Part shown: positions 5,935 to 50,378 of the stretch, piece after piece
Layout: the number at the start of each line of letters is the position of its first letter
Numbering within the stretch: the stretch's first letter is position 1
Source of the DNA: a virus
Taxonomy: Duplodnaviria; Heunggongvirae; Uroviricota; Caudoviricetes
Direction: 5' to 3' (one strand)
IMG/VR virus record: IMGVR_UViG_3300032320_002688
Coordinates: 1-64,000 of that record
Length of the DNA stretch: 64,000 nucleotides
Notes under the pieces: generated by a model
What the model saw: only the letters and a program-made list of their open reading frames with translations
What the model was told of the DNA's origin: nothing
The model's database searches: none
Translations under genes and position numbers: made by a program

Positions 5935-6879
5935 TTACTTTAAATTTAAAAGTGCATTACTACCTGATCCTAATACTGTAGTTGGGACATCGCCTTTCCA
6001 TTTTTGCACCTTGATATATTCAATGTACATTGGGGTTAGGAATTGTTGTTCTTTTCTTACTGCCTCTGCTCTACCAGCAGCAGCAATTACAGCTTGAGCA
6101 CTATCACCTTTAGCACGTGCAATTTTTTCTTGTGCCTCAGCTTGAGCAACTAATGTTCTCTGAATAGCGGCTTGTGCTTCTTGAACTGCTTTAGTTTTCT
6201 CTTCAATTGACTTTGTAATAGCAGGAGGTGGAGCGATATTAGTTCTTAATTGAGATACTGTAAACCACTTACCTACTCTCTTATTACATTCAGTGATGAT
6301 ACTAGCTTCAAATTCAGCTCTGTGGTTAAAAATACTATCAACTGTAAATAAGTTTGCTACGTCATTAACTGATGATACAATAGCATTTCGTAACCAACCT
6401 TGTTCTACTGTTTTAATATCAACCCTTAAGTTCTGGAACATTTGATCCACTGCTGTTGGGTTAAGTGAATAGTTAAAACTAGGTCTAATTGTTACTTGGA
6501 AACCACCTTTAGTAATAATAGTGTTTTCTTCATAATCAATATGTTGTTGGTAAACTGGAAACTCATAATATTGTTGTGTAAATGAGTTATATAATACCCA
6601 ACCACGTTTGTATTCTACTTTAGCCATACCTTTACTATCGCCGATGTTATCTACTAAAATAGCTACTTTACCTGAATCAACTCTCTCCACTTCGTAGGGA
6701 ATAAATACTCCCAAAATAAGAGAAATAACTACTGTTGCTACTGCTTTAATAACACCAAGTGGTTTTAAATGTACATCACCATACTTATCAGGTTCACCTG
6801 TATAGGTAGATAATTTAAAGGCACCGAATACTACTCCGAATACCAAAATCGAAATAATGAATGTTAAAATTCCAATCAT
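5935..6879 (-). CDS. SPFH/band-7 (stomatin/prohibitin/HflKC-like) membrane protein
   Basis: N-terminal TM helix, central band-7-like region, C-terminal Ala/Glu/Gln-rich coiled coil AQAEAQEKIARAKGDSAQAVIAAAGRAEAVRKEQ. Confidence 0.6.
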   Translation of the reverse strand: MIGILTFIISILVFGVVFGAFKLSTYTGEPDKYGDVHLKPLGVIKAVATVVISLILGVFIPYEVERVDSGKVAILVDNIGDSKGMAKVEYKRGWVLYNSFTQQYYEFPVYQQHIDYEENTIITKGGFQVTIRPSFNYSLNPTAVDQMFQNLRVDIKTVEQGWLRNAIVSSVNDVANLFTVDSIFNHRAEFEASIITECNKRVGKWFTVSQLRTNIAPPPAITKSIEEKTKAVQEAQAAIQRTLVAQAEAQEKIARAKGDSAQAVIAAAGRAEAVRKEQQFLTPMYIEYIKVQKWKGDVPTTVLGSGSNALLNLK

Positions 6880-37890: not shown

Positions 37891-40497
37891 TTAGCTAATA
37901 ACAAAAAATTTGTTGGCATACTCGTTAAGAGATGGAAAAGACCATTTTAAATCATCATACACGCCCTGCAGTTTATTCAGGAACGTTGAGTCGAATGTTT
38001 TTTCTTTATCAACATACTTCTCGATGAACTCCATTATTTCTGGTGGGTCATCAACTCCATAGAATCCTATACAATCAAGTCGATATGGATTATCTTTTAA
38101 ATACACATAGTATATTTTTTCAAATTCCTTAATTGTTGGATATTTTTTATCTAATTTTTTAAATCGTAATAAATCGTTGTAGTAAATAGCTGCTTTAGTA
38201 TTAATCGGAGCTTTAGATTTTAAGTCACTAAATATCTTAGATGCTGTAGGTCCACGCTCAATATATTCTCTAATTTTCTTAACTCCAGTTGGTTTAGCAA
38301 TTTCAACTATTTCTCGACCAGCAATACTTTTCTTGAATGATGATATTAGTAAATCAATTTCTTTCTTTTGTTTACCGAACATGATTTGTTGAATTAAGTT
38401 CTCACCAAATTTTCTAAATAATGGAGGGAAATTTGATTTCATCAAATCTAATCCTTTGATATCTAATTCTTCGGTTGTGACACCCTCTTTATTAATAATG
38501 TATTGGGCATAACGTCTTTTACCTGCAAAATAACCTCTTTCAAGTATCACCTCTTGTTTTAATTCAAAATAATGATCATCCTGAATATTAAATAAATCAC
38601 GAACGTGTTTATTAAGATATTTGTTAATTTGTTTTTGGTAATCACTTGCTACTTCTAATATTTTAGCAATGCGAGCATCTCTATCATTAACATCTAAATC
38701 AGGCCATCTGTATCTTACAACATCACCTACTCTAATAAACATTGAATCGGTATCACTTGTAATTACATAATCAACATCTTCAGTTCCAATTTCAGTATTA
38801 ATCATTCGATTCATTTCTAAGATTGATTCTTTGATTAATCGTTGTCCTGTTAATGTAATGGCGTTTGAAATGACTTTATATCCGTCTGTATATCTCCATC
38901 CGTTTTGGGCAAAACACCCGTAAACGTCATTTAACTTAATTTTAAACGCATGTTGTCGTTTATTATAAAACTCACCTAATACAGGATCCTTCTTTACTTT
39001 ATAAGCATCCTTCATCATGTTTTTATATTCAACACGTTTATCAAACCAATCTGATAATACATCACAAACAACACTTCGTTTATCACTCCTAAACAACCCA
39101 CCACTAGCGGCAATTGTAAGTTTATTTTTTTCAATCATTTCGATTAACTTACTTGCTGTAATTTGAGTTACTTGACGTTTAGGATTTTCAATAGTTACTT
39201 TCTCACTTGGTCTAAGTGCTTTTAAATCCATTAACGTCCAATTACTATCATATTTATCTCTTATTTTAACATTACCAACTAATGTTTCTACTCCCATATT
39301 CAATGAACGAATAATAGATGGGTATAGTGAGGTAAAGTCAAGATCAATTACATCGCTATATAAGCCAGGAATAGGATCTTTTAAATAACCACCAGCATAT
39401 TCATCCCCAATTGTTAAACGCAATTCTGGGTTCATTGTTGTTGGTTTGTTATTAGAAACAATACCCTGACGTTTTAGGTAAGTCAAGATAGCTCCTTCAT
39501 TTAACATTGTCGACCAGTAGATATTCTCATACGGCACGTGACACAAATGACAAATGTTGAGTGTTAATTCTATAAATTGGAGTTTTTTATCTAACTCAAT
39601 TAGAATTTCAACGTCACGAATGTTATAATCGATGAATTTAGCTTTATCTTCCTTAAATAATTTATCTAAACTAACTTCATACTTAATTTTACCTAAATTA
39701 ACATATTTTTCTCCAATATCACCTAATTTATAAGATGGTTCTTGTTTAGTAATATATTTTTTAAATAAATTAAAGTAGTCTAAGTGATTAATACCGGCAA
39801 TGTCAACATAGTCTTTACTCATTTTTTGAGATTCAACTGTAGTAACAGCTCCGTATTGATTTAAATTACCTATAATTCCTAATGGGGATAATCGTTTTGC
39901 TGTGTTGTGATCAAACACTTTCAGCATTCTAAAATATAAATAAGGAATATCAAAAAATTCACTATTCCATCCTACAACAATTGTAGGTTCAAGTTCTTCC
40001 CATTTGTCTAAGAATTTTAACAACAATTCTTTTTCAGTATAGCACGCAATAATGCTTCTACCATTTTCTTCAAACGATTCCATAGATTTAGATTCGTCAA
40101 GAATATAACAAATTGTTTGTTGAGTGGATTTGTCATATAGAGCAATTGAAGTAATTTTAGTTGGAGAATTTTTAATATTCTCAGGAGTTAATGCACCACC
40201 AATTTCACACTCAATATCTAAAAATACTATATTATGCCATTTAGGTGGCTCGTCTTCATGTAAATAACTTTCTATTAATACACGAGTCTCATTAGGAATA
40301 TCTACTTCATAGTTTTCCTTAGAGTATTTGTAAGTAGGAGATACTTTTTTACCATCTAAAGTAACAAACTCACCATTTGGGTTTGGTTGGTAGTAAGTGG
40401 GTCTATAATCAAATGAAACCCAACCCTCGTTATCATCTTTAAGGTGGACAGTTTTAGCATAGTTCTCCCCTTGCTGGATGTAAATGGCTTGATACAT
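37891..40497 (-). CDS. family-B DNA polymerase with 3'-5' exonuclease
   Basis: Exo I FLDIECE; motif A DLDFTSLYPSII; motif C ITSDTDSMF; KxxxNSxYG-type motif B region. Confidence 0.9.
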   Translation of the reverse strand: MYQAIYIQQGENYAKTVHLKDDNEGWVSFDYRPTYYQPNPNGEFVTLDGKKVSPTYKYSKENYEVDIPNETRVLIESYLHEDEPPKWHNIVFLDIECEIGGALTPENIKNSPTKITSIALYDKSTQQTICYILDESKSMESFEENGRSIIACYTEKELLLKFLDKWEELEPTIVVGWNSEFFDIPYLYFRMLKVFDHNTAKRLSPLGIIGNLNQYGAVTTVESQKMSKDYVDIAGINHLDYFNLFKKYITKQEPSYKLGDIGEKYVNLGKIKYEVSLDKLFKEDKAKFIDYNIRDVEILIELDKKLQFIELTLNICHLCHVPYENIYWSTMLNEGAILTYLKRQGIVSNNKPTTMNPELRLTIGDEYAGGYLKDPIPGLYSDVIDLDFTSLYPSIIRSLNMGVETLVGNVKIRDKYDSNWTLMDLKALRPSEKVTIENPKRQVTQITASKLIEMIEKNKLTIAASGGLFRSDKRSVVCDVLSDWFDKRVEYKNMMKDAYKVKKDPVLGEFYNKRQHAFKIKLNDVYGCFAQNGWRYTDGYKVISNAITLTGQRLIKESILEMNRMINTEIGTEDVDYVITSDTDSMFIRVGDVVRYRWPDLDVNDRDARIAKILEVASDYQKQINKYLNKHVRDLFNIQDDHYFELKQEVILERGYFAGKRRYAQYIINKEGVTTEELDIKGLDLMKSNFPPLFRKFGENLIQQIMFGKQKKEIDLLISSFKKSIAGREIVEIAKPTGVKKIREYIERGPTASKIFSDLKSKAPINTKAAIYYNDLLRFKKLDKKYPTIKEFEKIYYVYLKDNPYRLDCIGFYGVDDPPEIMEFIEKYVDKEKTFDSTFLNKLQGVYDDLKWSFPSLNEYANKFFVIS

Positions 40498-41906: not shown

Positions 41907-42440
41907 TTATCCTTGTCTTTGTTTGTCATTCTGCCACTGCCCATCATATAATTCAGCAGGATCACATTCATGGAAATATATTTGCGCTACTCTAGCGTCT
42001 TCTTCAATAAAAATAGTTTCTGTTACTAACATAATTGTTCCCATGTTATCTGTTTCAAAACCAGGATCAAATACTGGAGAATTAATTAATGTACCATTTC
42101 TCCACATTGATGAACGTTGCTTAATGAATGCTACACGATTAGCAGGTATTCTACAACCTTCGTTAAAGGTAATATCATAAGTACCTTCATGTAACAACCA
42201 TCCTGTTCTACCATCCAAGTTTAATTTATCAACAGGAGTATAATCAGCTAGTTCTGTTTTTTCTTTTAATACTTTTCCAATTCTACCTGTTTTTTCTAAT
42301 GTTACAGGATCAATTTGAGGATTATATCCTACTTTATTTACTGCTTTAAGGGTAATATCAAAACCAACTTGTGCTGGTTTACCCTTAGCATTATCTAATT
42401 TAAGGAGTCCTTCTCCTAATATTTGTTGTACGTTTAACAT
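41907..42440 (-). CDS. dCTP deaminase/dUTPase-family protein
   Basis: 177 aa; beta-rich dUTPase-like pattern GFDITL...GRTGWLLHEG...IMLV. Confidence 0.5.
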   Translation of the reverse strand: MLNVQQILGEGLLKLDNAKGKPAQVGFDITLKAVNKVGYNPQIDPVTLEKTGRIGKVLKEKTELADYTPVDKLNLDGRTGWLLHEGTYDITFNEGCRIPANRVAFIKQRSSMWRNGTLINSPVFDPGFETDNMGTIMLVTETIFIEEDARVAQIYFHECDPAELYDGQWQNDKQRQG

Positions 42441-42591: not shown

Positions 42592-43005
42592 TTACTTTCT
42601 TTCTCTTGCATAATCTTGTATTGTTTTTGAATCTGCTCTTTCCCATGGATATACTATCCAATCTTTATCTACTACTTCGTAATGGAATGTTGGTTGTACA
42701 GATGCAGTTTCTTTTGTGTGGATTGTTGCTGTTGTGATGACATTATACTTCTGTAATGTTCCCCCAGAATCGCAGATATCATCTACTATTAATACTTTAT
42801 TATTTAAGACCATTCCAGGCCTAAACAATGGAATGTCTAATTTATGAGATAACATTACAGCAGGTATTAATCCTCCTCTAGGCATTCCAAATATATATTG
42901 AATATCTAACCCACTGGATATTACTTGAGATGCTATATTATCTACAGCAGTCTCAATATAATCCCAGGTAATAAATCTTTTGTTCATATTAGAATTTTGT
43001 TCCAT
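42592..43005 (-). CDS. gpt: xanthine-guanine phosphoribosyltransferase-like (type I PRTase)
   Basis: FITWDYIE, PRGGLIPAVMLSHKL, VLIVDDICDSGGTL, WIVYPWE align with E. coli Gpt IVTWDML / SRGGLVPGALLAREL / IDDLVDTGGT / WIEQPWD. Confidence 0.7.
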   Translation of the reverse strand: MEQNSNMNKRFITWDYIETAVDNIASQVISSGLDIQYIFGMPRGGLIPAVMLSHKLDIPLFRPGMVLNNKVLIVDDICDSGGTLQKYNVITTATIHTKETASVQPTFHYEVVDKDWIVYPWERADSKTIQDYARERK

Positions 43006-43621
43006 TTACTTCAATCGCGTGTAAGAATTCTTCTCTAATTAAATTATCTTTTTCCATAAACACACCACTAAATTTGTTTGTAGTCATTGTTGATGGGTGT
43101 TTAATACCTCTATGTGAGCAACATGTGTGCTTACAAGCAATACTAACGGCTACTGATGGGCAATCCATTTTAGTAGATAAGTAATCATGAATTTGTTGTG
43201 TTAATGATTCTTGCATTTGTGGACGGCGACTAAACCATTCTACAATACGATTTAATTTACTTAAACCAATAACGTTTTCACCGGGCACATAAGCTAATGT
43301 AGCAAATCCAGTAAATGCTAAGTTGTGGTGTGCACACATACTAACAATAGGAATACCTGATTGGATAACTAATCCATTATAACCATCATCATTAGGAAAT
43401 ACTGTAATGTTAGGTTCGTCTGTAATACTGCCTACAATTAAATCTTTTAACCATGCTTTAGCTACACGACGAGGTGTATCTTCAGTTTGTCTATCAGCTG
43501 TGTAGTCAAATCCTACAGCATTAAGGAAATCACCATATGCTTTAGCTGCTTTATCAATCATTTTTTCTACCTCTTTAGGTGTACGAGATAGACTACCATT
43601 TGATTTTTTTAATAATTCCAT
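42989..43621 (-). CDS. folE: GTP cyclohydrolase I
   Basis: MCAHHNLAFTG...VIGLSKLNRIVEWFSRRPQMQESLTQQI matches FolE CEHHLVPF...VIGLSKIARIV..AQRPQVQERLT. Confidence 0.9.
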   Translation of the reverse strand: MELLKKSNGSLSRTPKEVEKMIDKAAKAYGDFLNAVGFDYTADRQTEDTPRRVAKAWLKDLIVGSITDEPNITVFPNDDGYNGLVIQSGIPIVSMCAHHNLAFTGFATLAYVPGENVIGLSKLNRIVEWFSRRPQMQESLTQQIHDYLSTKMDCPSVAVSIACKHTCCSHRGIKHPSTMTTNKFSGVFMEKDNLIREEFLHAIEVNGTKF

Positions 43622-44176: not shown

Positions 44177-45016
44177 CTATACGTTTAAGGTTTTATTCCA
44201 AGCTGCAATATGTAATCTTGTAAGACCACGGAAACGATACTTCTTAGCCATTTCAAGACAGAATCTAGTGCGCTCTTCAAAATTAGAAGCATCATCTAAA
44301 CCTGGCATACAAACAACGTTTTTAAGCGGTATATTAAATGGTTCTACGAAGTCACGGAATAATTCCAATACATCGTCTTCAGTGCTAATAACGAACTTAA
44401 ATTGATAGTTTTTATGTAGTTTAATACGCTCAATCGCTTCTGGATTAATACGTTGTTTTTCTGTCATACCTGAATTAGCTAATTTAGGTGAACAGTTAAT
44501 TTGATCTAACATATTAAATAACTTAACATCTATCACTATTGTACCATTAGTTTCAATTTCATAGAATGGTTTAACATTATTAACGTCAAGATATCTTGAC
44601 ATCCAGTAATTAGTAAAATTAACAATTGCTTCTTGATGACCTTTAATTGTTGGTTCACCACCTGTCCAAATAATATGAACTAAACCATTTTTAATATCTT
44701 CATATACACCCTCTTCTTTCCAACGATTAATTAAATAATCAAAATCTTTATCTTCACCTCTCCACAACCATTGACTAGTACTATCACAAGTCCAGGTTGC
44801 TTTACCTTCTAATTCTAAATCACCTTTGAATATTTCACCATCTTCTAATGATGCTTCTTTCATTAACTGGTTAGTAAATGCTCTACTCATACCGCAGGTT
44901 AGGTTACAAATACCTAAACGAACGAAGTACGATGGGATACCAGATGATATACCTTCGCCTTGAATGCTATAAAAATCACTACTAATAAGTAGTTTATTTG
45001 AATCTATTTTACTCAT
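44177..45016 (-). CDS. queE: 7-carboxy-7-deazaguanine synthase (radical SAM), atypical Cys spacing
   Basis: FSIQGEGISSGIPSYFVRLGICNLTC, HIIWTGGEPT, YEIETNGT align with E. coli QueE; the third cluster Cys appears displaced to WTCDSTSQW (compare CDTKHTW). Confidence 0.75.
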   Translation of the reverse strand: MSKIDSNKLLISSDFYSIQGEGISSGIPSYFVRLGICNLTCGMSRAFTNQLMKEASLEDGEIFKGDLELEGKATWTCDSTSQWLWRGEDKDFDYLINRWKEEGVYEDIKNGLVHIIWTGGEPTIKGHQEAIVNFTNYWMSRYLDVNNVKPFYEIETNGTIVIDVKLFNMLDQINCSPKLANSGMTEKQRINPEAIERIKLHKNYQFKFVISTEDDVLELFRDFVEPFNIPLKNVVCMPGLDDASNFEERTRFCLEMAKKYRFRGLTRLHIAAWNKTLNV

Positions 45017-45875
45017 TTACTTGTGTTGTTTTATGTTCTGATAATACTTTTTCTACGTGTGATTTAGCTACTTCCCAACTTACAGGACCTGTTTCGTCAG
45101 CATATGCTACTGGGTCAGGACGTCCTAATTTGATAAATGCTTCAATACGCTCTACTGATGCTGCTGATTTATAATCACTAAACCATTCTTCGTATTGAAA
45201 ACCTAGGTTATCGTAAATTAATAATTTAATTGGTTTATAAGATGTATTTGTACGCTTATATACCTCATTAAAATCAAGACCTAAGATATCACAAGATCTT
45301 TGCCCGTCCTCTAAGATGTCAAATTTATTAACTTCAAGATATGGAGTATAATGGTATACTAATTCTGAATCCCAGTTACCAATCTTAAAGGCTTCCATGT
45401 CTGCATCTCTAAATTCTTGACGGCAGTCAGGATAAATTGCATGATCACCAGCATGGATACCCATTGCAATAGCAACATCTCTTTTTTCCAATTGACCATC
45501 ACCTAAATCTTTAGTTGCAATTGATAATGCTACTGCTTGAATCAATGATGAAAAAATTTTATTACGATTAGGCACAACTGTTTCTTTCATATTGTCTTGC
45601 TCGTAATGTCCTTCTGGAACATCATTACCCCCAGTTACTAAAGCAGAGTTTAATAATTGAGATAAACCATCTAGTTTGATAATTTGATGTGTTACAGGTT
45701 GATTGTTTTCTTTTAGATATTGTACTAATGATGTAGCACGTTCTAATTCTACTTTGTGTTTTTGACCATAGTCAAAACCTAATGCTGTTACTTCGTAGCC
45801 ATTGGCTAACAGGTGTAACAATAATGAACTTGAATCCATCCCACCTGACAAACTTAAAACTGCTTGTTTTTTCAT
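45009..45875 (-). CDS. queC: 7-cyano-7-deazaguanine synthase-like, no canonical Zn-Cys cluster
   Basis: AVLSLSGGMDSS PP-loop, FDYGQKH, YPDCRQEF align with QueC; C-terminal CxxC...CxxC zinc site not found; protein 288 aa versus about 230. Confidence 0.75.
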   Translation of the reverse strand: MKKQAVLSLSGGMDSSSLLLHLLANGYEVTALGFDYGQKHKVELERATSLVQYLKENNQPVTHQIIKLDGLSQLLNSALVTGGNDVPEGHYEQDNMKETVVPNRNKIFSSLIQAVALSIATKDLGDGQLEKRDVAIAMGIHAGDHAIYPDCRQEFRDADMEAFKIGNWDSELVYHYTPYLEVNKFDILEDGQRSCDILGLDFNEVYKRTNTSYKPIKLLIYDNLGFQYEEWFSDYKSAASVERIEAFIKLGRPDPVAYADETGPVSWEVAKSHVEKVLSEHKTTQVNE

Positions 45876-46072: not shown

Positions 46073-46867
46073 TTATTTAATGTAACTTTTAAATTTATTT
46101 ACATTAAAGGTAATATCTTCTATTCGCTCTTCCAAGTTCATTTCGAAATAATGTTCTAATTTATTTGCTGGTTTGAAATCAATCCCATTATCAGCATAAC
46201 GAACACCCTCGGCTCCAACTAATATTGGATTAGATGTATCTACTGATTTAATAAATTTCCAATCACTATAAGACATAAATTCTTGAGGCAATGAACAACC
46301 TAATAAATGATGGTACAATGTTTTTCTAATAGTACCAGACTCAACTAAGCGTCTGATGAACTCCATTCTACCATGCATTGATGCTTTTAATGGCAGTAAA
46401 TCAGCAACTATTGGATACATTTCTTGATAGGCAACACTAGAATGATTAAATGCAATATGTGTATAACCTAAATCAACTAATGTTTGATATGTTGTAACTA
46501 ACTCACCTATATCTTGTCCTTGGCATACTGCCATTAAATTAACACCCTCAGGTAAATGTTGTTTATAATTAATCATCCAACTTTTAGCATTTCTAATTGT
46601 TGCTGACGAATCATTCCATTCATCTGGGACAATAAAAACATCAGGACGAATTAAATGGATTTTTTCAATTAAATCTTCTGTTGTATGAGTTACTCCTTCA
46701 AATAAACCATTATCCATAATAATAAAGCGTTTATCTGAACGAGATTGCTCGAAAAATGTTCTGTATTGAATATACTTATCAATTAAATGAGGAAGACAAT
46801 AATCATAGTCATTCCATTGATATGCGTTTTGCATTAAGCTAAGAGGTAACTCATGACTTACTTTCAT
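46073..46867 (-). CDS. dpdA: tRNA-guanine transglycosylase-fold protein, DpdA-like
   Basis: IIMDNGLFEGV resembles the TGT nucleophile motif (L/M)TDSGG(F/Y)Q; size and position within the queCDE-folE cluster. Confidence 0.45.
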   Translation of the reverse strand: MKVSHELPLSLMQNAYQWNDYDYCLPHLIDKYIQYRTFFEQSRSDKRFIIMDNGLFEGVTHTTEDLIEKIHLIRPDVFIVPDEWNDSSATIRNAKSWMINYKQHLPEGVNLMAVCQGQDIGELVTTYQTLVDLGYTHIAFNHSSVAYQEMYPIVADLLPLKASMHGRMEFIRRLVESGTIRKTLYHHLLGCSLPQEFMSYSDWKFIKSVDTSNPILVGAEGVRYADNGIDFKPANKLEHYFEMNLEERIEDITFNVNKFKSYIK

Positions 46868-47084
46868 ACTTATGTAATTTTTTAGTTAATTTATCTATTT
46901 GAAGTTGACAAAACCATTTACCCATATTACCAGAGGCATTGTTATATTTTTCCTTCCATTCATTTATTTTTTTATGAATAGGAGCATTAGCTTTATTAAG
47001 TATATCAATGTCGTAATAGCTATTATTTTCTAACATTGGATCATTATTATCCTTCATATATAGCGCTGTTTCTTTCATTCTCAA
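46851..47084 (-). CDS. hypothetical protein
   Basis: 77-aa ORF. Confidence 0.35.
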   Translation of the reverse strand: MRMKETALYMKDNNDPMLENNSYYDIDILNKANAPIHKKINEWKEKYNNASGNMGKWFCQLQIDKLTKKLHKYESKS

Positions 47085-47514
47085 AAAATTCTACTTGTAC
47101 TATTTTAACTCTACCATTTGTTTCTTCTTGTACAAATGTATTTAGTTTTTCATAAATGAATTTAGCAAATTGTTCTGCACCAACAGGACCTTCTAATAAT
47201 CTAAGTTGAACAATACCTTTCTTATCCATTTCCTTAAATAATTCTACTTCAGGATCATCTGGTGCTATAACAGTAGTATGATCGAACATGTAGTCCATCC
47301 ATTGTTTAGCATTCATACCGTCAATGGTAGTTTTTGCTCGTTTCATTCCTCCAAAGTCCCAAACCCAATTTCTGTGGTCTAATTCTCCTTCAAATGTTAC
47401 TTTAAATTCAATGTCATATCCGTGTAGGAACTTACAATGTGTTCCCTCAGCAGCCCATTGACGAAAAACAGTACTAAAACCATTAAATAATTTTGTTGAT
47501 TGAAATTTACTCAT
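47047..47514 (-). CDS. queD: 6-carboxy-5,6,7,8-tetrahydropterin synthase-like
   Basis: EGTHCKFLHGYD corresponds to the QueD CxxxHGH region (here HGY); DFGGMK and FDHTT blocks. Confidence 0.65.
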   Translation of the reverse strand: MSKFQSTKLFNGFSTVFRQWAAEGTHCKFLHGYDIEFKVTFEGELDHRNWVWDFGGMKRAKTTIDGMNAKQWMDYMFDHTTVIAPDDPEVELFKEMDKKGIVQLRLLEGPVGAEQFAKFIYEKLNTFVQEETNGRVKIVQVEFFENERNSAIYEG

Positions 47515-48034: not shown

Positions 48035-48226
48035 CTATTTATTTGGCGTAAATTTAAGTATCTTTTCTGAGATAACCACCCTTCCCTTAGTATGTTTTGG
48101 TTCGTAAGGACAATGTCGACATCCATTACCGCAACATTGGCCGCGTCTAATGTGAGCGAGCGCTGTGAATATCACGCGCTCGCCTTCTATATAGTAATCA
48201 ACTTTATTTGTGAGTTCTTTACTCAT
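48035..48226 (-). CDS. Cys-rich mini-protein
   Basis: 63 aa; QCCGNGCRHCPY. Confidence 0.4.
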   Translation of the reverse strand: MSKELTNKVDYYIEGERVIFTALAHIRRGQCCGNGCRHCPYEPKHTKGRVVISEKILKFTPNK

Positions 48227-50117: not shown

Positions 50118-50378
50118 TTATAATAATTCTTTAATCGCCTGAATATAGGCTGATTTAGGTTTTGCTCCTATAATTTTATTTACTACTTCTCCGTCTTTTT
50201 CAAGTATAATAGCAGGAATACTTGTTATAGAATAAGCTTGAGCTATAGCCTTATTTGTATCTACATCGATATCTATATAATTAACTCCGGATATTTCTCC
50301 TTTTATTTGTTCGAAAACAGGAGATAATGCCTTACACGGACCGCACCATGCAGCCGAGAATTTAAGAACCTTTACCAT
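50118..50378 (-). CDS. thioredoxin
   Basis: 86 aa; WCGPC active site. Confidence 0.85.
   Translation of the reverse strand: MVKVLKFSAAWCGPCKALSPVFEQIKGEISGVNYIDIDVDTNKAIAQAYSITSIPAIILEKDGEVVNKIIGAKPKSAYIQAIKELL

Follow-up and report, generated by a model that had tools for sequence, protein, structure and literature searches.

Introduction

Barrel-type radical-SAM enzymes are generally regarded as having an almost invariable distance, CX2C, from the second to the third cluster cysteine. In QueE, the three cysteines ligating the SAM-binding [4Fe-4S] cluster are found close to the N-terminus, where strand 1 ends. The QueE enzymes of E. coli (6NHL) and B. subtilis (5TGS/5TH5; CDYSCSWC in 5TGS) follow the canonical CX3CX2C motif, with 2 residues between Cys2 and Cys3, and share QGEG, an Arg before Cys1, CD[TS], TGGEP or GGxP, and a C-terminal His motif. 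QueE from B. multivorans (4NJG) is built differently, as CX14CX2C: its insert separates Cys1 from Cys2 and leaves CX2C intact. The paper on the B. multivorans structure reportedly presents QGEG, the Arg before Cys1, the Asp-Thr/Ser after Cys3 and the C-terminal His as substrate and Mg2+ signatures, and the conserved QueE residues, TGGEP included, are said there to be signatures of substrate, Mg2+ and SAM binding.

A variable two-helix element that follows Cys3 in E. coli QueE (E45-W67) is dispensable for queuosine synthesis (PMC11142719). In the RadicalSAM.org survey, the variants are exclusively of the type CXnCX2C, with n = 4-11 (PMC9477430). Other non-canonical motifs, such as CX5CX2C in HmdB, that of ThiC and CX2CX21CX5C in PhnJ, depart from CX3CX2C yet bind a SAM-cleaving cluster (PMC9477430; PMC4389238). 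QueE is also encoded by viruses. The DNA of phages phiSM and nt-1, and of HVTV-1, a halovirus related to HCTV-1, contains 7-deazaguanines, and the papers on these viruses treat the proteins simply as QueE, leaving the motif unmentioned (PMC10516641; PMC6884629). Insertion of 7-deazaguanines into DNA is a documented anti-restriction strategy in related phages (PMC6884629, PMC10516641).

Here, we analysed a 64-kb stretch of viral DNA (IMG/VR record IMGVR_UViG_3300032320_002688, positions 1 to 64,000; hereafter, the window) that holds a QueE-like gene. In the listed barrel-type variants the Cys1-Cys2 spacing is changed and CX2C is kept, whereas the clade to which this gene belongs keeps CX3C and varies the distance between Cys2 and Cys3.

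Results

The QueE-like gene and its cysteines

Only one long ORF in the ORF list of the window covers positions 44780-44950, and its 279 codons run without interruption (Table 1). Direct codon reading gives SIQGEGISSGIPSYFVRLGIC37NLTC41GMS44, followed by the remainder of the insert and then ATWTC77DSTSQW. The spacing is C37-x3-C41-x35-C77, that is, CX3CX35C, which is neither CX3CX2C nor CX14CX2C, and Ser44 occupies the canonical third-cysteine position. The initial annotation had proposed a QueE homolog with Ser at this position (CNLTCGMS) and the next Cys about 38 residues on, in WTCDSTSQW. Codon reading bears out the serine and the distal cysteine but gives a true spacer of 35 residues, and the family profile, the fold and PHROG 2076 (below) agree with the assignment to QueE.

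Table 1. Positions of the QueE-like gene, its motifs and the neighbouring pathway genes in the window.
Feature	Position	Strand	Details
QueE-like radical SAM gene, predicted 7-carboxy-7-deazaguanine synthase	44177..45016	-	279 aa
Cys37, putative first cluster cysteine (GIC-NL)	44906..44908	-	codon aca, reverse complement tgt
Cys41, putative second cluster cysteine (CNLTC-G)	44894..44896	-	codon gca/tgc
Cys77, putative displaced third cluster cysteine (ATW-x-C-D-S)	44786..44788	-	codon aca/tgt
35-residue insert, residues 42-76	44789..44893	-	between Cys2 and Cys3; GMSRAFTNQLMKEASLEDGEIFKGDLELEGKATWT
QGEG motif, residues 19-22	44951..44962	-	substrate-binding signature of QueE
TGGEP motif, residues 118-122	44651..44665	-	SAM-binding 'GGE' motif; codons read directly
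QueC (preQ0 synthase)	45009..45875	-	Pfam QueC 3.6e-36; stop overlaps QueE start by 8 nt
FolE (GTP cyclohydrolase I)	42989..43621	-	Pfam GTP_cyclohydroI 1.5e-47
QueD (6-carboxytetrahydropterin synthase, PTPS fold)	47047..47514	-	PHROG 2389 3.5e-41; Pfam PTPS 2.6e-15
DpdA3-like DNA guanine transglycosylase candidate	46073..46867	-	264 aa; relation to phage said to encode DpdA3 (PMC10516641)

In an alignment of 108 diverse full-length relatives (alignment A1), the residues R33, C37, C41, C77, D78, T118-G119-G120, E155-T156, S176, K178 and R267 were invariant. Conservation was at least 90% for each of Q19, G20, E21 and G22, and likewise for E121 and P122 of TGGEP. D78-S79 and the C-terminal R267-L-H269 are present and conserved in A1, and the same residues in the solved QueEs align with them. 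When diverse clade members with all spacer types mixed were aligned without constraint, the C41 and C77 columns contained Cys in 128 of 128 sequences. No further Cys conserved across the clade was found in A1 or in the 120 close homologs described below: C175 is fixed in close relatives only, C253 reaches only about 50% even there, and C175, C253 and C236 all fall outside the A1 columns that are invariant or close to it. We infer from the sequence that Cys77 is a [4Fe-4S] ligand.

Relationship to characterized QueE enzymes

The window protein matches PHROG 2076, 'QueE-like radical SAM domain' (1.7e-37). Compared with solved structures, the A1 family profile retrieved QueE at the top, namely 6NHL from E. 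coli (3.4e-20), 4NJG from B. multivorans (4.2e-19) and 5TGS from B. subtilis (6.1e-19); the top solved structures were QueE only, with other radical-SAM enzymes far behind. In the profile alignment, the three cysteines match all three ligand cysteines of 6NHL and 5TGS, and Cys1 and Cys3 of 4NJG. The C77-D-S turn falls on the ligand Cys-Asp-Thr/Ser of all three solved enzymes, in a CD[ST] context like that of E. coli QueE (W-CDTKHTW), and QGEG aligns with their QGEG.

An AlphaFold2 model built on A1 (mean pLDDT 94.8, pTM 0.92) predicts the QueE fold, a reduced radical-SAM barrel. The top six Foldseek matches of this model in the PDB were QueE crystal structures (E 4.7e-10 to 4.2e-08), with viperin next, and the highest TMt, 0.77, was obtained with 5TGS_A (rmsd 2.9 Å). 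In both the profile and the fold comparison, the E. coli and B. subtilis enzymes match the window protein best, with an identity of only 18-20%, and B. multivorans QueE belongs to the same family and fold.

Curated family models place the protein less firmly. No Pfam family matched the window protein at E <= 0.01, so there was no Radical_SAM (PF04055) match. Its five strongest NCBIfam matches were the five QueE equivalog models (TIGR03963, TIGR04322, TIGR03365, TIGR04508 and TIGR04349). All were well short of their cutoffs, the best scoring 46.8 bits where 260.1 is required, and in the other clade members tested the five strongest matches were likewise all QueE models. As none of the clade members tested, canonical or variant, reached a curated NCBIfam QueE cutoff, we consider the clade an unmodelled QueE lineage. 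No record corresponded to the window protein in an exact look-up. Public pipelines and phage annotators name the homologs either QueE or 'organic radical activating enzyme'.

The insert between Cys2 and Cys3

Among 5.8 billion proteins searched, 5,258 homologs were identified. The 120 closest, which come from separate assemblies, are 275-279 aa long and 87-94% identical to the query. The spacer is exactly 35 in 120/120 of them, and Cys37, Cys41 and Cys77 are each 100% conserved. Across 26 genes of this type, dN/dS (Nei-Gojobori) was 0.23 in the insert compared to 0.13 in the rest of the protein, which shows that purifying selection acts on the insert. The AlphaFold2 model folds the insert into one helix (45-53) and a second, shorter one (66-69), which connect strand 1 (28-34) to the C-D-S turn; block-mean pLDDT here is 77-94.

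Variant members of the clade conform to the consensus C-N-L-x-C-G-(x)n-A-T-W-x-C-D-[ST], with n = 3-42. Of 103 variants, 90 have Gly directly after Cys2 and 98 have Trp at -2 from Cys3, while in canonical clade members an aromatic residue (W/F) is found at -1 (13/13). As the register of the aromatic residue moves by one, the variant loop is not a pure insertion, and SAM binding may differ in detail. The initial proposal of an insertion inside the cluster-binding loop therefore holds for its location, between Cys2 and Cys3, and not for a simple insertion.

That proposal had also called the arrangement the reverse of a Cx14CxxC variant in B. subtilis. The CX14CX2C enzyme is B. multivorans QueE (4NJG), B. 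subtilis QueE being canonical. The description of a mirrored layout is apt, since Cys2 lies before the insert in the window protein and after it in 4NJG. In the profile alignment the two inserts overlie each other, both leaving after C-N-L-x-x-G and returning before the C-D-T cysteine, but the insert of the window protein keeps CX3C and parts Cys2 from Cys3. It is also longer (35 residues compared to 14 in B. multivorans QueE), and the aromatic residue is at -2 from Cys3 rather than at -1. E. coli QueE differs again, its variable element lying after Cys3. The further suggestion of a new cluster-binding topology goes too far. Homology points to use of the three usual ligand positions, which makes the window protein a loop-length variant.

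By analogy with the B. multivorans insert, with E. coli E45-W67 and with the co-evolution with flavodoxin proposed by Grell et al., to the extent that it is quoted in PMC11142719, we tentatively favour the insert as a surface element beside the cluster, which might tune docking of a host electron donor or shield the cluster, although we would put the chance of this at somewhat under even. The insert is net acidic (7 acidic compared to 4 basic residues) and therefore a poor fit to docking of acidic flavodoxins or ferredoxins. Motif scans of the 64-kb window did not find a phage-encoded ferredoxin or flavodoxin motif. The same scans picked up only a thioredoxin-like ORF and a small DUF5522-like ORF containing CX3CX2C.

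Distribution of the displaced cysteine

The C-x3-C...C-D-[ST] pattern was present in 116 of the 50%-identity representatives closest to the query, with Cys2-Cys3 spacers of 29 distinct lengths between 2 (canonical) and 42. Published phage members of the clade include Cellulophaga phage phiSM (CX3CX6C), Halovirus HCTV-1 (CX3CX23C) and Vibrio phage nt-1 (CX3CX40C), and canonical forms occur in Mycobacterium phage Knocker and Chryseobacterium phage MA9V-3. The QueEs of phiSM, HCTV-1/HVTV-1 and nt-1/KVP40 are 24-35% identical to the window protein and, like the window gene, stand in gene sets for 7-deazaguanine DNA modification. Their inserts differ from that of the window in both length and sequence, and the nt-1/KVP40 type ends in ...LPLV-x-T-G-C-D-S, without ATW.

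We retrieved 80 independent IMG/VR contigs to count viral forms. Half of them (40/80) had the window type, x35 or x36, and 12 had the x18 type (CNLMCGG.GTQ.D..LH.GA.WRCD[ST]); about 25 had the KVP40/nt-1 type (x34-40, C.GFGMP...LPLV.TGCDS), and 6 were canonical. At 78 bacterial and archaeal genome loci, the canonical form accounted for 52 (Verrucomicrobia, Dehalococcoidia, Binatia, Sulfolobales and others) and x18 for 20 (Saprospiraceae, Marinamargulisbacteria, and MAGs assigned to Bdellovibrionales and Rickettsiales). In the cultured bacterium Saprospira grandis DSM 2844, the x18 gene is chromosomal and lies among housekeeping genes such as that for peptide deformylase, and its product had no Pfam match at E <= 1e-4. 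The inserts appear to be lineage-specific, with x35 in the window, x18 in Saprospiraceae and Margulisbacteria, and x34-40 in KVP40-like phages. Canonical and variant members were interspersed in a weakly resolved neighbour-joining tree calculated with the insert masked.

[quoted passage not shown] Viral relatives with this layout number in the thousands, and some bacterial ones have it too. The motif is not peculiar to the window: forms with x3 to x42 occur in phages already published with a QueE annotation and on bacterial chromosomes. The identity of the gene as QueE is not new. The CX3CXnC architecture appears to be undescribed: we found no description of it in the searchable literature, whose reach does not extend to the primary papers on QueE structures.

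Bona fide inteins, with Intein_splicing and Hint matches, interrupt some homologs of 540-740 aa. They are located immediately before Cys3 in P0122, P0123, P0131 and P0270 (...ATWx/C...HN/CD[ST], where slashes mark the intein boundaries), immediately before Cys2 in P0137, P0139, P0251 and P0256 (CNFL/...HN/CGG...), and before the Thr of TGGEP in P0225. Splicing would restore CX3CXnC in the intein-bearing homologs. Inteins typically sit at the most conserved functional or essential sites, and their positions here provide an independent pointer to Cys41 and Cys77 as probable essential residues. The searchable literature contained no relevant report of an intein-bearing QueE.

Genomic setting

The genes for FolE, QueC and QueD lie within 4 kb of the QueE gene on the same strand, which also carries the adjacent DpdA3-like gene (Table 1), and this set of pathway genes recurs on a related phage contig of 181 kb. 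The window is AT-rich, with a GC content of 31.9%, and of its 64 ORFs with 120 aa or more, 63 have the minus orientation. Its T4-type (gp43-type) DNA polymerase is only 35.7% identical to that of the nearest isolate, and none of 50,697 phage records matched the locus in a megablast search. The gene set, the strand bias and the polymerase identity indicate that the source is an uncultured T4-like phage with a putatively complete pathway for preQ0 synthesis and DNA insertion. A nearby ribonucleotide reductase belongs to aerobic-type families and not to the anaerobic glycyl-radical type.

Discussion

We consider it highly probable, on the strength of the predicted protein and its neighbours, that the window gene encodes a working phage QueE. 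Within a FolE-QueD-QueE-QueC pathway, this radical-SAM enzyme would convert 6-carboxy-tetrahydropterin (CPH4) to 7-carboxy-7-deazaguanine (CDG), a reaction that in QueE depends on SAM, Mg2+ and a reductant. Its [4Fe-4S] cluster would be held by Cys37, Cys41 and Cys77, at the positions that the three ligands occupy in solved QueEs, while the loop between ligands 2 and 3 would have grown from 2 to 35 residues as a small helical excursion. The pathway product, preQ0, would then be written into phage DNA in place of guanine by the DpdA3-like transglycosylase. Retained catalysis is what we infer from sequence, conservation, homology, fold class and pathway context. Besides the shifted aromatic residue, it counts against this explanation that a host QueE could supply CDG in phages with modified DNA and that the protein fails every curated threshold in Pfam and NCBIfam.

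An apparent loss of the third cysteine could in principle come from a frameshift or misassembly, but the chance of this is negligible, as the ORF is unbroken over 279 codons, the 120 nearest homologs from separate assemblies all have x35 at 275-279 aa, 40 viral contigs have x35 or x36, and substitutions within the insert follow a codon-level purifying pattern. These independent assemblies exclude a sequencing or assembly artefact. The full inteins that occupy the cluster loop of several homologs raise the question of whether the insert is what remains of an intein, or of another mobile element, that once resided there. We regard such an origin as very improbable. The insert lies between C-G and A-T-W, whereas the inteins lie directly before Cys2 or directly before Cys3, after ATWx; P0123 and P0131 hold insert and intein together; no Hint or intein domain was detected in the window protein, which has no Pfam match; and the length of the insert is conserved and under selection.

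The lack of a Pfam radical-SAM match would also suit a degenerate protein that has lost its cluster and serves another, perhaps moonlighting, role such as host interference, and in E. coli a second function of QueE in cell division depends on the variable region beside the cluster loop (PMC11142719). Against this stand the three cysteines, QGEG, TGGEP, CD[ST] and the C-terminal R-L-H, all invariant or nearly so throughout the clade, the retention of the gene inside complete preQ0 pathways and the placement of the x18 form among housekeeping genes in Saprospira grandis. We therefore give little credence to a pseudo-enzyme; a moonlighting role may exist on top of catalysis. Another function within the radical-SAM superfamily, such as glycyl-radical activation, is suggested by the JGI name 'organic radical activating enzyme' given to many homologs, by weak NrdG2 matches in some clade members and by a top BFVD match labelled NrdG. 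This too is quite unlikely, given that the five strongest NCBIfam matches are QueE models in the window protein and the other clade members tested, that QueE ranks first in profile and fold searches, that the QGEG substrate motif is present, that queC overlaps the start of the gene, with folE and queD on either side, and that the ribonucleotide reductase nearby is of the aerobic type. On this evidence, the pseudo-enzyme, activase and intein-remnant readings were rejected.

The biology downstream of such a QueE, in which deazaguanine modification of their DNA lets phages evade restriction, is already known. The displaced-cysteine loop leaves the window protein without a Pfam radical-SAM match and below every curated QueE threshold, and proteins unmatched by Pfam and curated models are therefore likely to go uncounted when radical-SAM enzymes or phage DNA-modification pathways are surveyed by motif. 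More speculatively, and with the balance clearly against it, the Cys2-Cys3 loop may be an evolvable module, whose inserts set donor choice, protect against O2 in aerobic marine hosts or add a second, host-directed function like that of E45-W67; CX3CXnC would then be an overlooked radical-SAM class.

In a large clade that is abundant in viral metagenomes, 3-42 residues and even inteins are tolerated at a place where the textbook motif allows 2, and every catalytic signature is kept. The cluster loop thus appears more plastic than the textbook motif implies, and the natural series x2, x6, x18, x23, x35 and x40 would allow the effect of loop length on reduction, oxygen tolerance and SAM binding to be followed.

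A T4-like lineage and the genes around its QueE

The window has a GC content of 31.9%, and 63 of its 64 open reading frames of at least 120 aa lie on the minus strand. Megablast of the locus against 50,697 phage records gave no match, and the nearest isolate to its gp43-type DNA polymerase, Microcystis phage Mel-JY01, shares only 35.7% identity. Related contigs measure 160-197 kb. The source of the window is an abundant yet uncultured T4-like lineage.

The dCTP-deaminase/dUTPase-fold gene is flanked by the DNA polymerase and deazaguanine genes, an arrangement common to the window and L086, a related 181-kb phage contig. Within the deazaguanine set, the FolE gene overlaps by 17 nt that of a phosphoribosyltransferase-like protein, which does not readily fit into the preQ0/DpdA pathway as it is known and whose substrate could be a base or nucleotide intermediate. 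QueC carries a C-terminal extension of approximately 70 residues beyond its Pfam model. A motif scan across the whole 64-kb window revealed no ferredoxin or flavodoxin motifs; it picked out only a thioredoxin-like ORF and a 63-aa ORF, and the position corresponding to the latter is occupied in L086 by a DUF5522 gene.

Features of the window, related loci and QueE homologs
Feature	Source	Position	Strand	Remarks
gp43-type DNA polymerase	window	37891-40497	-	
dCTP-deaminase/dUTPase-fold protein	window	41907-42440	-	
Phosphoribosyltransferase-like protein	window	42592-43005	-	137 aa; PF00156, 8e-11
QueC	window	45009-45875	-	288 aa; Pfam QueC model spans residues 4-214 only
DpdA3-type candidate	window	46073-46867	-	
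Small ORF	window	48035-48226	-	63 aa; CCGNGCRHCPYEP
Thioredoxin-like ORF	window	50118-50378	-	86 aa; WCGPC; adjoins ribonucleotide reductase
Genes interrupting deazaguanine set	L086	3028-3591; 8923-9561		weak NUMOD1 / GIY-YIG matches
CX3CX18C QueE	Saprospira grandis DSM 2844 chromosome (L012)	5986-6753		
Intein	P0122, P0123, P0131, P0270	immediately N-terminal to Cys3		
Intein	P0137, P0139, P0251, P0256	immediately N-terminal to Cys2		
Intein	P0225	ahead of Thr of TGGEP		LAGLIDADG domain

Inteins and mobile elements

Inteins were found at three distinct sites across the QueE homologs, adjoining Cys3, adjoining Cys2 and ahead of the TGGEP Thr; the literature searched held no description of inteins in QueE. 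The deazaguanine cluster is apparently a hot spot for mobile elements, and the inteins fit this picture. In L086, the set is broken up by genes with weak homing-endonuclease matches. The window contains neither these genes nor an intein.

Distribution of the CX3CX18C variant

QueE with 18 residues between Cys2 and Cys3 occurs in several bacterial phyla, being found in Saprospiraceae, Marinamargulisbacteria and MAGs assigned to Bdellovibrionales and Rickettsiales (loci L008-L029). In Saprospira grandis DSM 2844 its gene stands among housekeeping genes. The variant thus extends beyond viruses.

Candidate DNA transglycosylase

The candidate transglycosylase of the window probably belongs to the DpdA3 type; its matches also include hypothetical proteins from Campylobacter phages of the CP220 group. 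If it is of the DpdA3 type, extensive guanine replacement in the DNA of this phage would be implied.
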